Source: Desulfovibrio sp. (GTDB lineage: Bacteria; Desulfobacterota; Desulfovibrionia; Desulfovibrionales; Desulfovibrionaceae). Taken from it: a stretch of 64,000 bases of DNA. This document shows, in pieces, positions 7,341-56,255 of the stretch. The notes beneath the pieces were generated by a model that had not been told where the DNA came from, did not search any database, and saw nothing but the letters and a program-made list of their open reading frames with translations. Position 1 is the stretch's first letter, and each line of letters begins with the position of its first letter. The stretch spans positions 17,788-81,787 of the forward strand of contig NZ_JAGZUV010000011.1 of assembly GCF_018379785.1 (NCBI RefSeq), given 5' to 3'. A program made the position numbers and the translations under genes.

Positions 7341-8849
7341 TTATTTCTTTTTGCGCTTCTGGCGCTCTTTCTTTTTCCGCTTCTTGGCAGCGGCGGATTT
7401 CGCCCCTCCGGGCCGTCCGCCCGGCAGCGCCATGCCGTCCATTCCACCCATGCCCGGAAATCCGCCCATACCAGGCACGCCCATGCCGGGGGGCATCATG
7501 CCCGGCGGCATTTTGGGCATGGCCGGACGGCCTCCCTTGGCGCCCTTGCCGCCCATCATGCCCTTCATCATCTGGCGCATCTGCTCAAACTGGCGCACCA
7601 TCTGATTGACCTGGGCCACGGTCACGCCCGCGCCCTTGGCGATGCGCGCCCGACGGCTGCCGTTGAGGATATCCGGATTGCGGCGTTCCTGCATGGTCAT
7701 GGAATTGATGATGGCCTCGGTGCGCGCCATTTCCTTTTCCGGCACCGCGCCGTTGGCCTCGGCCAGTTTTTCGCGCAGGCCGCCCAGGCCCGGAATCATT
7801 TTCAGAATGCTGTCCAGCGAACCCAATTTCTTGATGCGGCGCATCTGGGTACGAAAATCTTCTAGGTCGAAGCTGGCCTTCTGCATCTTGCGGGCCAGGG
7901 CCTCGGCCTCTTCGGCGTCAATGGTGGACTGGGCCTTTTCCACCAGGGTGAGCACGTCGCCCATGCCCAGAATGCGCCCGGCGATACGGTCGGGGTGGAA
8001 GACCTCCATCTCCGACAGTTTTTCGCCCACGCCCACGAATTTCACGGGCGCGCCGGTCACCGAACGGATGGACAGGGCCGCGCCGCCGCGCGCGTCGCCG
8101 TCCATCTTGGTCAGCACAACGCCGGTCAGGCCCAGGCGCTCATTGAAAGCCTCGGCCACGGTCACGGCGTCCTGGCCGGTCATGGCATCGGCCACGAACA
8201 AAATTTCCTGCGGCCGCACCGCCGCCTTGATGGCCGAAAGCTCTTCCATCAGGGGTTCGTCCACGTGCAGACGGCCCGCCGTGTCCAGCAGCAGCACGGT
8301 GGCCTGCTCTTCACGGGCCTGAACCAGAGCCGCCGTGGCGATGTCCACGGGCTTCATCTCCGTGGTGGAGGGGAAGCAGGGCATGTCGAGCTGCTTGGCC
8401 AGCACCGTGAGCTGGTCGATGGCCGCCGGGCGGTAGACGTCCGCCGGGACCAGATAGGGCCGCATTTTCTGCCTGCGCAGCAGATTGGCTATCTTGCCCG
8501 CCGAGGTGGTCTTGCCCGAGCCCTGAAGGCCCACCAGCATGATCACCGCCGGTTCGCGGCCCTGCAGGTTGAGCCCCGTGGTTTCGCCGCCCAGCAGAGA
8601 AACCAGTTCGTCATTGACGATTTTAACCACCTGCTGGGCCGGGCTTACGCCTTTGAGCGTTTCCTGCCCCAGGCACTTTTCGCGCACGCTTTCCACAAAG
8701 TCTTTGACGACCTTGAAGTTGACGTCCGCTTCCAGGAGCGCCAGCCGCACTTCGCGCAGACCGGCCTGCACGTTTTCCTCGGTGAGCTGGCCGCGCCCGC
8801 CGAAAGAGCGGAATACGCCGGAAAGTCTGTCGGAAAGGCTCTCGAACAT
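7341..8849 (-). CDS. ffh: signal recognition particle protein Ffh
   Basis: MFESLSDRLSGVFRS... NG domain GLQGSGKTT, Met-rich M domain and basic tail; start at internal ATG 8849 of ORF 7341..8897. Confidence 0.9.
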   Translation of the reverse strand: MFESLSDRLSGVFRSFGGRGQLTEENVQAGLREVRLALLEADVNFKVVKDFVESVREKCLGQETLKGVSPAQQVVKIVNDELVSLLGGETTGLNLQGREPAVIMLVGLQGSGKTTSAGKIANLLRRQKMRPYLVPADVYRPAAIDQLTVLAKQLDMPCFPSTTEMKPVDIATAALVQAREEQATVLLLDTAGRLHVDEPLMEELSAIKAAVRPQEILFVADAMTGQDAVTVAEAFNERLGLTGVVLTKMDGDARGGAALSIRSVTGAPVKFVGVGEKLSEMEVFHPDRIAGRILGMGDVLTLVEKAQSTIDAEEAEALARKMQKASFDLEDFRTQMRRIKKLGSLDSILKMIPGLGGLREKLAEANGAVPEKEMARTEAIINSMTMQERRNPDILNGSRRARIAKGAGVTVAQVNQMVRQFEQMRQMMKGMMGGKGAKGGRPAMPKMPPGMMPPGMGVPGMGGFPGMGGMDGMALPGGRPGGAKSAAAKKRKKKERQKRKKK

Positions 8850-19353: not shown

Positions 19354-19410
19354 GCGTCGGTAAAATCCGCGGGGCAACGGGCCAGGCAAACAGTCTGCCC
19401 GGCCAAGCTA

Positions 19411-19521
19411 GGGCAGACGCATCTAATTCGGTAACTATTTGAAATTATTAATATATAATAAAATATATTTGTTGTTCGTAGCAAATAATTTCAAATAGTT
19501 AGATGCTACGTGCGTCTGCCC
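19411..19521. mobile_element. MITE-like element: ~111 bp, imperfect terminal inverted repeats (GGGCAGACGCATCTAA / TTAGATGC..GCGTCTGCCC), AT-rich core, flanked by 8-bp direct repeat GGCCAAGC
   Basis: Left arm 19411.. gggcagacgcatctaattcggtaactatttgaaattatt, right arm ..aataatttcaaatagttagatgctacgtgcgtctgccc 19521; flanking cccGGCCAAGCt / gccGGCCAAGCc. Confidence 0.6.
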
Positions 19522-19737
19522 TGCCGGCCAAGCCCCACCGCCTTGCCAAAGTCCCGGCCCACGCTTATGATCTGTACATGTGCGCCATTCATCTTCCCAT
19601 CCGCCGTCTGTTCTGCGGCTTCCCTGAAGAGCGCTACTGGCGCTCCCTGCTCTAAACCCGCATCTTCCGTCCTCCGGCTGAAAAGGCCGCTGTCACGCGG
19701 CCTCTGTCACATCCGTTTTTTTTGCGGGGAATTTTAT

Positions 19738-20181
19738 ATGCTGACCACCAAACCGTTTCACTGGTATTGCCTGCTGGGAGCCATTGCTCTGGAAGTGGGC
19801 GGCACCACCGTCATGAAGCTGGCCCAAGGCTGGACCTTCGCCCATGCCGCCCTGCTGGGCCTGCTTCTCATGTGGCTGGCCATCGGCCTTTCCTATTATC
19901 TGTTGGCGCTTTCCACCACCGGCCTGCCCGTGGGCGTGGCCTTCGCTTTCTGGGAAGGCCTGGGCCTGACCCTGATCACTCTTTCCAGCGTGCTGATCCT
20001 GAACGAGGCGCTGACCTTCAAACGCGTTCTGGGCCTGATCTGCGTGCTGGCCGGGGCTCTGCTGGTGCACCACGGCACGGGCCACGGCGAAAGCCGGAAG
20101 CCGCGCCCGCGCGACGCCAAGGGCGGCTCTTCCCCCGGCGCAGAAAGCACGGACGCCGCGCCGGGCGCGGGGAGGCCGTGA
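19738..20181 (+). CDS. small multidrug resistance (SMR) family transporter subunit, with charged C-terminal tail
   Basis: MLTTKPFHWYCLLGAIALEVGGTTVMKLAQGW... 4-TM SMR pattern with conserved Glu in TM1; start at ATG 19738 inside ORF 19510..20181. Confidence 0.75.
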   Translation: MLTTKPFHWYCLLGAIALEVGGTTVMKLAQGWTFAHAALLGLLLMWLAIGLSYYLLALSTTGLPVGVAFAFWEGLGLTLITLSSVLILNEALTFKRVLGLICVLAGALLVHHGTGHGESRKPRPRDAKGGSSPGAESTDAAPGAGRP

Positions 20182-20519
20182 TGCACGCCCTTGCCGCCTT
20201 CTTCAATCTTTCCGTGCTGCTGGTCATCCTGGCCGCTGTTCTGGATATTCTGGCCAACCTGCTGCTGGCGCGCTCCCAGGGATTCCACCGCCGCTGGATA
20301 GGTTTCACGGCCCTGGCTCTGGTGGGTCTGGCTTTTTACTGCCTCTCCCTGGCGGTCAAAAACATGGATCTGGCCGTGGCCTACGCCATGTGGGGCAGCT
20401 TCGGCATTCTGGGCACCTCGCTGGGCGGCTGGCTTTTCTTCAATCAGCGCCTCAAGCCCTGCGCCTTCGCCGGTATGGGCCTGCTTATCGCGGGCATGCT
20501 GCTGTTGCATCTGGGGTAA
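20181..20519 (+). CDS. SMR family transporter subunit (paired with upstream gene; heterodimeric SMR)
   Basis: MHALAAFFNLSVLLVILAAVLDILANLLLARSQGF... 4 TM; ATG overlaps upstream stop (gTGATG). Confidence 0.7.
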   Translation: MHALAAFFNLSVLLVILAAVLDILANLLLARSQGFHRRWIGFTALALVGLAFYCLSLAVKNMDLAVAYAMWGSFGILGTSLGGWLFFNQRLKPCAFAGMGLLIAGMLLLHLG

Positions 20520-20552
20520 ACAGCCCGCAGAATTTCAGACAAGGAGGGACCA

Positions 20553-21808
20553 TGCTCAGCATGCCGGAGCATATGGGCCTGATGATGACCTTCGGGGAAT
20601 ATGAGCCCAGACACGGCTTTGCGATCTGGTGTCTCGGCTTTGCCCTGCTGCTTTATCTGAGCCGGCGGCGAAAAACGCTTTTGCTGACTTTTTTCGGCGC
20701 CTGCGGCATTATTCTGCTTGTGCTCCTTTTGGGCATTGTTGGTGGCGGCGTTATTCTTTTTGACTTTGAGACAAGCCTGGGCAGAGCGGCTTGCTTCACG
20801 GCAATTTTCTTTTTGAGCGTATGGGCCTTCGGCAGAGCTTGGGCGCAAGAAAGCAAAACTCCTCCCGGCGACAGCCTGCCCTTGTGGGGGAAAACACTTC
20901 TCCTGCTTTCGGCCCTAGGCTGTTTCGTGTGGGGGGCAGGCATCTATGCCGCCGGAGATGTCCCCCTGGCAAATGCCTGTTACAATGCCGTTATCGCCAA
21001 CGATATGAAACAACTGCGCCAATGTCTTGCCCTGCGTGCCGCCATCAGGCGGCACCCGGACTACAAGGGGGACCACAGCGTCAGGGCTTTCATGCCGGAT
21101 ACCTATGCCGCTTTTCATGAAATTGTGGCCGAAGACCAGGAACTGACGCCCCTGCGTCTGGAAATGCTGCTTCTTTTGCTGCCGGAATTTACCACTTCCT
21201 TTCATGAGGGACATTTGCACCGTTTTTTCAGCCTGCCACCGTCGCCCTTGCGCCAACGTCTCCTTGCCGCCATTCTTGAACAGAATTCAATGATCACAAG
21301 AGTGTCGCTGCAAGAATACGACAATCTCGTGGCCCGGGGAGACAAAGCCGCGCTTGCTCTCCTGCTGAAGCACGACTGGAAACACAAATATTCAGATCAG
21401 GCGCATCCGTTCAACCTCTTGCAAAATACCCGCCCCTCTCCCCTGCGCACGGAAATTTTGCAAAATATTCTGCGCCGGGAAAGAGATGCCTATCTCAAGC
21501 CTGCGCGTCTGGCTTTTTTCGAAATGGAGAGCATGGATGCGGAAACATTCTGTATGCTGCGCAGAGATAGAGACACAGCGGCCCTGAGCACGCCCGAAGT
21601 AACAGCCTGGCTGCAACGCTACAAGGAAGTGCTGGCCGCTTCAGCTCTGGAGGAACTGCTCAGAGGGGCCCCGACGCCGGAGTGGGAGGATGAGCTGACA
21701 ACACGCCTGCCCGCTCTTACGGACGAGGAACAACGAAAGGTTCATGACAGAAAGGAATTGTACAGGGATACAGCGCGATTTGGGCTGGATTATTGCGCCC
21801 GGCCATGA
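20553..21808 (+). CDS. hypothetical protein, N-terminal 4-TM region + cytoplasmic domain
   Basis: AAGGAGGG RBS then ATG 20553; locally lower GC; no recognisable family. Confidence 0.45.
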
Positions 21809-55405: not shown

Positions 55406-55683
55406 GGCGGCAGTGCCCACATTACCCTCTCTCACTTACCAATACGGCGCAAGCCCTCCGCACATGGGACTGTACCCGGAAACCTGAATTCCGCACTCCC
55501 GGCCATCGCGCAAGCCATGATGAAGCAACACAAAACAGGCTTCGCCGTGAAACTCGTTCAAAAAAGCCGCACCCGGCAGCGAACAGACAGCAACCCGAAA
55601 AGTAAAAGCCCCTCATGCAACCAAGGAAACAGGAGCATGCGGGGTTTTATGAACGGCTTGTGTATCAAGCGGGTATGGCTTCT

Positions 55684-55766
55684 GGTGCGAGAGGGGGGAT
55701 TTGAACCCCCATACCTAGGGTGCTGGATTCTAAGTCCAGTGCGTCTACCAGTTCCGCCACTCTCGC
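55684..55766 (-). tRNA. tRNA-Leu (anticodon TAG)
   Basis: Reverse complement GCGAGAGTGGCGGAACTGGTAGACGCACTGGACTTAGAATCCAG...GGGGGTTCAAATCCCCCCTCTCGCACCA: 7-bp acceptor stem, long variable arm, anticodon loop CTTAGAA, encoded CCA. Confidence 0.85.
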
Positions 55767-56182
55767 AAAGATATTTTTATATCTCATTTGCGGGCGAGCC
55801 GCAAGCTGCGCTATCTGCCTTGTCAAGGCAGCCGCATCCAAAAAGCCTTTATTCCCCAATAGATCGCGGAACAAACAAAAAGTGGCGAAGCCACCTTTGC
55901 TCCGGCGGAGCAAAGGGCAGGCGGATGGCTGGTGCCGGGAGAATCCCGGAAAATAAGATTTTTGCGTGCTGGCAAGGAAAATGGCGCTTTTTGCGCGGAA
56001 ACCGACCGGAAGGCGGCCCAAAGGGCCGTGCCCGTTGGCGAGCAAAGCGAGCCTTACGGGCATCGAGAGCAGAGCTGTACTCACGTACATGAGCAGCAAA
56101 CAGCGTCGGCTGGCGCAGCCAGCACACAACAGGCTGTTTTGACGGATCATCACGGCAAATAAGAAGCCTGCAAAGACTGAAA

Positions 56183-56199
56183 TGAGATGCGTCTGCCCT
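56183..56199. repeat. solo copy of the MITE-like terminal repeat (AGATGCGTCTGCCCT)
   Basis: Matches the terminus of the 19411..19521 element; lies ~60 bp downstream of selD stop. Confidence 0.45.
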
Positions 56200-56255
56200 G
56201 TCTGCCTCGTGGAAAGCAAAGTCTGCACGCCGTGACGCGCGCCGCCCCAATTCCC

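Follow-up and report, generated by a model that had tools for sequence, protein, structure and literature searches.

A strain-variable, ISAs1-type miniature element upstream of paired SMR transporter genes in a gut Desulfovibrio, and a promoter-proximal insertion pattern in its family

The SMR locus and the structure of MITE-1

The stretch analysed here (hereafter the window) comprises 64,000 nucleotides of contig NZ_JAGZUV010000011.1 from a Desulfovibrio sp.; in it, paired genes for small multidrug resistance (SMR) transporters are preceded by an AT-rich palindrome of 115 bp, about 30% GC and non-coding, whose end lies 214 bp before the SMR start codon (19738). We call it MITE-1, after the miniature inverted-repeat transposable elements, or MITEs; a second element, MITE-2, lies between selD and a tRNA-Leu gene. 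This report concerns the nature of MITE-1, its variation among strains and the sites at which its family inserts. The coordinates are collected in Table 1.

Table 1. Features of the two elements, their surroundings and copies at other loci (window positions unless a locus is named).
Feature	Position	Strand	Sequence	Basis or remark
MITE-1, non-autonomous, ISAs1-type, AT-rich core, no coding capacity	19409-19523	none		Alignment, empty sites, Logan ends
MITE-1, left terminal inverted repeat	19409-19428	+	TAGGGCAGACGCATCTAATT	19 nt identical to ends of full-length ISAs1-family insertion sequences
MITE-1, right terminal inverted repeat	19499-19523	-	TTAGATGC[TACGTGC]GTCTGCCCTG	Comparison with other copies
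Outer inverted repeat	19410-19421 and 19511-19522		AGGGCAGACGCA / TGCGTCTGCCCT	Repeat finder; 12/12 complementary
Inner 18-nt inverted repeat, left arm	19432-19449	+	TAACTATTTGAAATTATT	Repeat finder, 18/18 complementary; kept in all 115-bp copies
Inner 18-nt inverted repeat, right arm	19484-19501	+		Repeat finder
MITE-1 target-site duplication, left copy	19399-19408	none	CCGGCCAAGC	Single copy in empty-site strains
MITE-1 target-site duplication, right copy	19524-19533	none	CCGGCCAAGC	Repeat finder; empty-site comparison
Microhomology, 8 nt	19393-19400	none	GTCTGCCC	Second copy at 19514-19521, inside right repeat
Only promoter-like site inside MITE-1	19455-19484	-	TTGCTA-18-TATTAT	9/12, consensus match only
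Candidate SMR-operon promoter, sigma-70-type	19543-19571	+	TTGCCA-17-TATGAT	10/12 matches; -35 starts 19 bp past MITE-1 end
Paired SMR genes, nearest downstream operon	19738-20519 (19738-20181, 20181-20519)	+		PF00893 on both products
tRNA-Leu (tag) gene	55683-55766	-		5' end 58 nt from MITE-2 end
tRNA-Leu promoter-like site	55776-55804	-	TTGCGG-17-TATAAA	19 bp from MITE-2 end, 9 nt before mature tRNA 5' end
MITE-2 duplication, left copy	55814-55823	none	TCTGCCTTGT	9/10 identical to right copy
MITE-2, 377 bp, same ISAs1-type family	55824-56200	none		BLAST of the selD-tRNA-Leu spacer against fetched loci
MITE-2 duplication, right copy	56201-56210	none	TCTGCCTCGT	9/10 identical to left copy
115-bp element, locus L054			GGCGGCACGG	10-bp duplication
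115-bp element, locus L099			GATATAGCCC	10-bp duplication
115-bp element, locus L100			ACCAATCTGG	10-bp duplication
Diverged 114-bp variant, loci L144 and L152 (Candidatus Bilophila faecipullorum)			CCGCCCTGCA/G	10-bp duplication

The ends of MITE-1 were set by alignment with ten other copies, by empty sites and by Logan contigs that stop at 19439. Its termini read T/CAGGG...CCCTG and its layout is TAGGGCAGACGCATCTAATTCGG TAACTATTTGAAATTATT ...34 nt... AATAATTTCAAATAGTTA GATGCTACGTGCGTCTGCCCTG, the right end being CAGGGCAGACGCA; the left repeat starts with T (TAGGG) in the window and with C (CAGGG) in all other copies. The terminal inverted repeats are perfect over 12-13 nt at their tips and imperfect over about 40 nt in total, and the canonical right repeat is broken by 7 nt at 19507-19513, a break found in all 115-bp copies. 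The GC content is 0.29 at 19400-19499 compared with 0.60-0.72 in the flanks, and the element has no coding capacity of its own, the only open reading frames (ORFs) there extending out of it. An initial annotation of this DNA had described the inverted repeats, the AT-rich palindromic core and the GC contrast, all of which are present in the sequence; it had also noted a flanking direct repeat, which exists, but is exact over 10 nt (CCGGCCAAGC) and not limited to the 8 nt (GGCCAAGC) then given.

As a single strand MITE-1 is predicted to form one long hairpin (RNA -47 kcal/mol, z -9.7; DNA -28.6 kcal/mol, z -9.0). An intrinsic terminator was rejected, since the hairpin is followed by CCGGCCAAGC without a T-run and the terminator scan calls none there. 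A structured RNA of Rfam was likewise rejected: MITE-1 scores 24-28 bits with microRNA hairpin models whose cut-offs are 89-100, look-alikes below threshold that reflect the long hairpin, while no riboswitch or small RNA was found at gathering or at E up to 1, and only tRNA passes gathering in the window. An integron attC-like or integrase att site was also considered and rejected.

Empty and occupied alleles among strains

Contigs encoding exactly the proteins that neighbour MITE-1 in the window were chosen from many human-gut metagenomes; they belong to the same species, an uncultured human-gut Desulfovibrio sp. (MBS6828994.1). In eight of the ten long conspecific contigs, diverged by 0.4-1.3% over 6 kb, the site is empty and the intergenic region is 117-125 bp shorter. 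Two empty alleles were distinguished: allele A (L006, L007, L012, L013, L014) reads ...CAGTCTGC CCGGCCAAGC CCCACC..., without the element and with one copy of the repeat, and allele B (L009, L010, L011) reads ...CAGTCTGC CCTG CCGGCCAAGC.... The occupied site was found in at least six independent assemblies (the window's own scaffold, L001/L008, together with L015, L002, L003, L005 and L138). MITE-1 entered the intergenic site in one lineage, and other strains retain the empty allele A.

Allele B matches the right junction of the occupied site over 20 nt, and a deletion between the two copies of the microhomology GTCTGCCC would yield exactly this allele. From this we infer that allele B arose by near-precise loss of MITE-1 through slippage between these repeats, since otherwise its four extra bases would match the last four of the element by chance. 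A duplication of 16-20 bp at MITE-1 was rejected; a match due to chance or to the target accounts better for the extra GTCTGCCC, and it would later have made the allele-B deletion possible. In a tree of the strains built from 6 kb, alleles A and B and the occupied state are intermixed, a distribution that is consistent with recombination and from which the direction of change is not readable.

At this same site the centre of MITE-1 differs among the window, L015 (5672-5786) and L138 (5480-5594), the flanks being nearly identical, and each of the three centres resembles copies at other loci more than it does the other two. These differences could stem from gene conversion, from more than one insertion at a hot spot or from mixing during assembly.

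Copies at other loci

Three Logan assemblies with k = 31 end exactly 30 nt (k-1) inside MITE-1, at 19439; this is a repeat signature, which means that the sequence from 19410 onward also occurs elsewhere. The 19-nt terminus was found in at least 120 metagenome contigs and at least 60 genome contigs, from many phyla. The 115-bp element itself stands at unrelated loci, 94-98% identical to the window copy and each time with a different clean 10-bp duplication (Table 1), and at least eight distinct flanks were counted among metagenome contigs. Because an element with identical ends recurs at unrelated loci, the features of MITE-1 are far beyond chance. The MITE-like insertion with a target-site duplication that had been proposed initially, together with a look for empty sites in relatives and a search for the terminal repeat, is borne out by the empty sites of conspecific strains and by the copies found at other loci. 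MITE-1 is indeed a MITE: it is short and non-coding, has inverted repeats and a duplication of constant length, is multicopy, has an empty site and shares its ends with insertion sequences (ISs).

Some contigs have one flank in common and not the other (L038 and L072, L129 and L099, L138 and the window). A MITE-specific pattern, GGCAGACGCAN{8,12}TAACTATTTGAA, had no match in the scan of genome contigs, the species representative lacking the element, and blastn with MITE-1 against plasmid and phage collections gave AT-rich chance hits only (E 0.09 or worse).

That the palindrome is instead ancestral intergenic DNA, such as a terminator or stabiliser hairpin or an SMR operator, deleted in other strains, is very improbable. 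The very stable hairpin lies 56 nt beyond the stop of the upstream ORF, as might suit such a function, the strain tree shows the alleles intermixed and allele B resembles a deletion product; however, the same 115 bp occur at unrelated loci with different 10-bp duplications, the ends are those of ISAs1-family ISs, the hairpin comes with no T-run, called terminator or Rfam match above threshold, and the GTDB representative of the species has no such element. We consider the ancestral-DNA explanation largely refuted.

Of the copies at other loci, those of L099, L100 and L054 are 97-99% identical to one another, and the 115-bp element is found both in flanks of 43-50% GC and in Desulfovibrio-like flanks of 61-63% GC; this contrast suggests that it may be carried by more than one host genus. 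In L054, a human-gut contig of low coverage (1.9x), two inverted copies (475-589 and 1275-1314) bracket a low-GC segment of 686 bp with an ORF, an arrangement like that of a composite transposon.

Relationship to the ISAs1 family

The full terminal repeat, CAGGGCAGACGCATCTAATT, is common to MITE-1 and full-length ISs of the ISAs1 family. Inverted pairs of these ends lie 1717-1725 bp apart in L041, L075, L067, L139 and L134, and other pairs are 1.25-1.76 kb apart. The gene enclosed in L075 matches the full NCBIfam model NF033564, 'ISAs1 family transposase' (E 1.3e-122, 409 bits for a cut-off of 70), and its product has the Pfam domains PF13808 (DDE_Tnp_1_assoc) and PF01609 (DDE_Tnp_1). Such a transposase, 46-100% identical to that of L075, is encoded with the same 19-20-nt ends in at least 20 fetched loci, and a homologue search with the L075 protein returned at least 8000 relatives. 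ISAs1 elements are described as having inverted repeats of 14-22 bp that start with CAGGG and a 10-bp direct repeat (PMC11946415), ISArsp11 showing CAGGGCTGATGC... and a 10-bp repeat (PMC6305408). Both features are found in MITE-1, with ends of the CAGGG type (TAGGG at the left in the window) and the 10-bp repeat CCGGCCAAGC.

The same ends also delimit numerous short elements (112-640 bp), unrelated in their interiors and mostly with clean 10-bp duplications, that are hosted by Verrucomicrobiota, Kiritimatiellia, Bacteroidota, Acidobacteria, Desulfovibrio and others; short elements and full ISs with 10-bp duplications amounted to dozens of end pairs and to 37 non-redundant family members. No published description of ISAs1-derived MITEs was found in the literature searched.

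Two further observations concern this family. The 1.72-kb ISs hold, beside the transposase gene, a second and divergent ORF of 105 aa without a Pfam match (L075, 1421-1738, + strand), for which the shorter relatives of 1.25-1.3 kb seem too small. In addition, the metagenome-assembled genome of the termite-gut Desulfovibrio sp. Im510_bin59 has at least six copies of a different, GC-rich MITE of 134 bp with the same 20-nt ends (L149, L150, L154, L185, L191, L204); most of these contigs, from a k = 119 assembly, break about 115 nt into the element.

MITE-2 at the tRNA-Leu and selD genes

The initial annotation had reported a 15-nt copy of the MITE-1 terminus near 56 kb and called it a 'solo' terminal repeat near selD. 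The match to AGATGCGTCTGCCCT is exact and lies at 56185-56199, not from 56183; it turned out to be the intact end of a complete MITE of 377 bp. With up to three mismatches, AGATGCGTCTGCCCT has six matches in the window against 2.3 expected. The end of MITE-2 on the selD side (56181-56200) is a good repeat, CAGGGCAGACGCATCTCATTTC, and the other, at 55824, is degenerate (CAAGGCAGCCGCATCC). By BLAST, MITE-2 and a 378-bp element of L142 share 89% identity over 376 nt, and MITE-2 also matches eight further relatives, among them L137, L078, L091, L115, L096, L063 and L201.

This locus also varies within the species. About 234 bp of MITE-2 (55973-56207), including the good end and part of the duplication, are missing in the conspecific contigs L016, L017, L019 and L024, and the two allele classes differ strongly over some 30 nt on the side of selD. 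In L019 a phage-type integrase island follows directly after tRNA-Leu (7795-8838 onward), where other strains have helix-turn-helix and glycosyltransferase genes.

Insertion at a constant spacing from promoter-like sequences

The target sites of the 37 non-redundant elements with 10-bp duplications were reconstructed and aligned. CAA/TTG stands exactly 9 nt outside the duplication in 20 of the 74 half-sites, compared with about 1.7 at other offsets, and the outward flanks are promoter-like (TTGACA-17-TAAACT, TTGACG-17-TAGACT, TTGCTA-17-TAATCT and, at MITE-1, TTGCCA-17-TATGAT). In a larger set of 213 non-redundant ends TTG occupies flank positions 20-22 in 43 (Poisson P 2.6e-28), the mean at other offsets being 4.2 and the maximum 11; 17 more ends have TTG one base closer. 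The hexamer at the 20-22 offset has the general form TTG(AC)N, and the commonest version is TTGACA (11), followed by TTGACG (5). The columns G41, T43, A44 and T48 are enriched as well, forming TGnTAnnnT after a 17-nt spacer, and TTG-N20-TA occurs 15 times at the right offset against at most three at any other; in the reverse orientation there was no enrichment among the 213 ends. The TTG pattern replicates separately in the metagenome set (32/140) and in the genome set (10/71), and TTG at position 20 is as frequent for MITEs (20/107) as for full ISs (6/31). A test for outward ORFs gave 38 of 43 promoter flanks and 117 of 153 others, in GC-rich DNA that is full of long spurious ORFs.

The gap of 19 bp between an element end and the -35 hexamer consists of the 10-bp duplication and 9 bp more, so that the ends would be placed at about -55 of sigma-70-type promoters and the duplication would span about -54 to -45. 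Both MITEs of the window fit this rule, MITE-1 at the SMR operon, where its right end is followed by CCGGCCAAGC, 9 nt and TTGCCA-17-TATGAT, exactly the family pattern, and MITE-2 at tRNA-Leu. This -35/-10 arrangement is also seen before two tRNA genes whose 5' ends are 58 nt away from the end of an element: TTGCGG-17-TATAAA-9-tRNA for the tRNA-Leu gene next to MITE-2 and TTGACA-17-TACAAG-9-tRNA for a tRNA-Arg gene in L058.

We lean, with modest confidence, towards the view that the CAGGGCAGACGCATCTAATT-ended ISAs1 subgroup and its MITE families, spread over at least six phyla, are tethered to promoters: a 10-bp staggered cut would be centred about 50 bp upstream of the start, leaving the end 19 bp from the -35, and the transposase would probably read DNA that is bound by RNA polymerase or shaped as a promoter. 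This would be a second, independent invention in bacteria of 'safe-haven' targeting upstream of promoters, by an IS4-like DDE enzyme. The 19-bp spacing could also arise if the transposase simply favoured a TTG/CAA half-site located 9 bp beyond each staggered cut and recognised neither promoters nor RNA polymerase, promoters being hit only for containing this motif; the signal is symmetric in principle, CAA at -12 mirroring TTG at +20, the motif is on both flanks at two sites, including MITE-1 (GGCAA...TTGCC), and the two flanks behave independently (of the 37 elements, two have the motif on both flanks, 16 on one and 19 on none). We take this to be unlikely, although it deserves weight: the enrichment of G41, T43, A44 and T48 at the exact 17-nt spacer is not expected from TTG alone, TTG-N20-TA is in excess at the right offset, and two tRNA genes have one layout. 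The transposase could still read a longer promoter-like sequence directly. No report on the target choice of ISAs1 elements or on their promoter-proximal targeting was found in the searched literature.

Probable consequences for the SMR genes

Between the upstream ORF and the SMR genes there is no good promoter-like site other than TTGCCA-17-TATGAT, and MITE-1 leaves the -35 and -10 of this site and the 19 bp upstream of them untouched. Because the core promoter is intact, the local effect is most likely small, and little effect of MITE-1 on SMR expression is expected. The element would replace the DNA upstream of -55 and add a strong hairpin to any transcript that reads through from the upstream gene. 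The suggestion that MITE-1 could supply a promoter to the SMR genes is not supported: no consensus match directed toward these genes was found within the element, and the sole internal site, TTGCTA-18-TATTAT, points away from them, toward the 3' end of the upstream ORF. The initial annotation is partly supported on the whole, its core reading being right and three details, the length of the duplication, the 'solo' repeat and the donated promoter, being corrected here.

It has also been considered that MITE-1 was co-opted as a regulatory module of the SMR genes (outward promoter, UP-like tract, site for a nucleoid protein, or insulator against read-through from the hisA cluster) and is kept by selection in some strains. 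Its end at about -55 of the candidate promoter, its AT-richness in a GC-rich genome and its persistence in six or more samples, among strains that differ by up to 1.2%, are compatible with such a role, and MITEs near genes are often discussed as regulators (PMC9208149). Nevertheless we find co-option improbable: the sole consensus promoter of the element faces away from the SMR genes and none faces them, the AT-rich part is set apart from the -35 by the GC-rich repeat and the duplication, starting about 45 bp upstream of it, and most strains lack the element. The family-wide insertion preference explains the position without selection, and it is from this preference for sites just upstream of promoters that the placement of MITE-1 appears to follow.

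Two other features of the SMR locus were observed. The predicted SMR leader (19578-19737, + strand, about 160 nt) hardly varies among strains; it closes with a GC hairpin (GGCCGC...GCGGCC) and a T8 run that directly precede the start codon. Its fold z-score is -2.4, and at E up to 1 it matches no Rfam family. Guanidine riboswitches frequently control paired SMR genes, and the leader could be an undescribed attenuator or riboswitch. Right after the SMR pair lies an ORF of 418 aa without a Pfam hit (20552-21808, + strand), which the window shares with L008 and L012; the other eight strains lack it, and their region is about 1.1 kb shorter. Its presence is independent of MITE-1.

Assessment of the ISAs1-derived MITE

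Taking these data together, we estimate at roughly nine in ten the probability that MITE-1 is a strain-variable, ISAs1-derived MITE sited just upstream of the candidate SMR promoter in keeping with the preference of its family. Several points weigh against this interpretation. There is no ISAs1 transposase gene within the 64-kb window, which leaves current mobility in this host unproven, and the T as first base in the window copy and the 7-nt break of the right repeat in all 115-bp copies could impair transposase binding. The MITE-1 copies of the window and L015 differ at 5 of 114 positions, which exceeds the divergence of the flanks. The GTDB representative genomes lack the exact MITE-1 pattern, so the copy number in the species may be very low. 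Some copies at other loci have no matching duplications (L038, L040, L072, L129 and the left side of L138); contigs with mismatched flanks are probably repeat-induced misjoins, recombination between copies being another explanation. As to the promoters, they are consensus matches and not mapped transcription starts, and a promoter-like motif occurs on either flank in only about half of the elements.

The misjoins bear also on the idea that the insertion is an artefact of metagenome assembly, with repeat sequence wrongly threaded into the site. Contigs running through MITE-1 can be chimeric, L138, L129, L038 and L072 having one flank in common but not the other, and the central bases differ between assemblies at the same site; yet the same junctions were recovered by different assemblers from different samples, in two ENA scaffolds, a SPAdes contig and, for the left junction, three Logan contigs, and the perfect 10-bp duplication obeys the rule of the family. 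An artefact is thus hardly credible.

Proposed mechanism and significance

We propose that MITE-1 is an internally deleted or rebuilt ISAs1-family IS, in which the CAGGGCAGACGCATCTAATT ends would have been kept around an AT-rich palindromic filler. Not being self-mobile, it would need a full-length copy to provide, in trans, a DDE transposase of the ISAs1 family. The enzyme would bind both ends, cut out or copy the element, choose a target by recognising promoter DNA or polymerase-bound DNA, and join the element to it through 10-bp staggered cuts, whose repair would yield the CCGGCCAAGC duplication. The element may later be lost by slippage, between the copies of the duplication to give allele A or between the GTCTGCCC repeats to give allele B, and the hairpin would help this process.

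Taken alone, MITE-1 is one more MITE and a strain-variable marker in a gut Desulfovibrio species. The wider value lies in one 20-nt end that full ISs have in common with many unrelated miniature elements of distant phyla, and in the constant spacing at which these elements stand upstream of promoter-like sequences. Should promoter-proximal targeting hold, the family would offer a new and tractable example of a transposase that finds a harmless landing site, comparable with TnGBS and ISLre2 and using an unrelated enzyme; its elements would serve as natural promoter markers in organisms that cannot be cultured, and insertions beside transporter and tRNA genes, as with both MITEs of the window, would reflect targeting and not selection for regulation.

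Comparison with known systems

Like the ISAs1 family (ISAs1, ISArsp11, Frankia Francci3_2330/2941), MITE-1 has repeats of the CAGGG type and a 10-bp duplication (PMC11946415, PMC6305408); unlike these ISs it measures 115 bp, lacks a transposase, has an unrelated AT-rich palindromic interior and carries one repeat broken by 7 nt. With other bacterial MITEs, such as the MaeMITEs of Microcystis, it shares a short, non-coding, multicopy and strain-polymorphic nature, repeats with duplications, a hairpin and an intergenic position. The Correia elements of Neisseria are another bacterial example. MITE-1 differs from such MITEs in its parent family, in its repeat sequence and in the 10-bp duplication, and the 20-nt end of its family encloses many unrelated MITE interiors of 112-640 bp in Verrucomicrobiota, Kiritimatiellia, Bacteroidota, Desulfovibrionaceae and others. 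REP and REPIN sequences resemble MITE-1 as intergenic, imperfect palindromes of about 100 nt with long hairpins. REPINs are not known to make target-site duplications; they possess a conserved motif of the GTAG type and are linked to an IS200-like RAYT gene. A REP or REPIN identity was rejected for MITE-1, given its 10-bp duplication and its ISAs1-family IS ends.

The closest parallel in behaviour is with the TnGBS conjugative transposons, ISLre2 and ISKra4, elements with Mutator-like transposases that insert 13-17 bp upstream of the -35 of sigma-A/sigma-70 promoters, as counted from the junction of inverted repeat and genome; for symmetric-repeat elements of this kind the promoter may be on either side, and a tether to the initiation complex of RNA polymerase has been suggested (PMC3942029). 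The family of MITE-1 also stands at a fixed distance from the promoter-like sequence, on either side, but the spacing is 19 bp and the transposase is of the IS4-like DDE_Tnp_1 type of ISAs1; membership in the Mutator-like (p-MULT 3/4) families was therefore rejected, the behaviour alone being similar. Its specificity is deduced from sequence statistics alone, and ISAs1 is not mentioned in PMC3942029. Yeast Ty3 and Ty1 offer an analogy only, proposed for TnGBS by Guerillot et al. (PMC3942029): contact with the transcription machinery directs their integration to a set position upstream of transcription units, but they are eukaryotic retroelements with an integrase and Pol III gene targets, without homology to the elements described here. 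Promoter-proximal targeting is thus already known for TnGBS, ISLre2 and ISKra4, and what would be new here is its occurrence in ISAs1.

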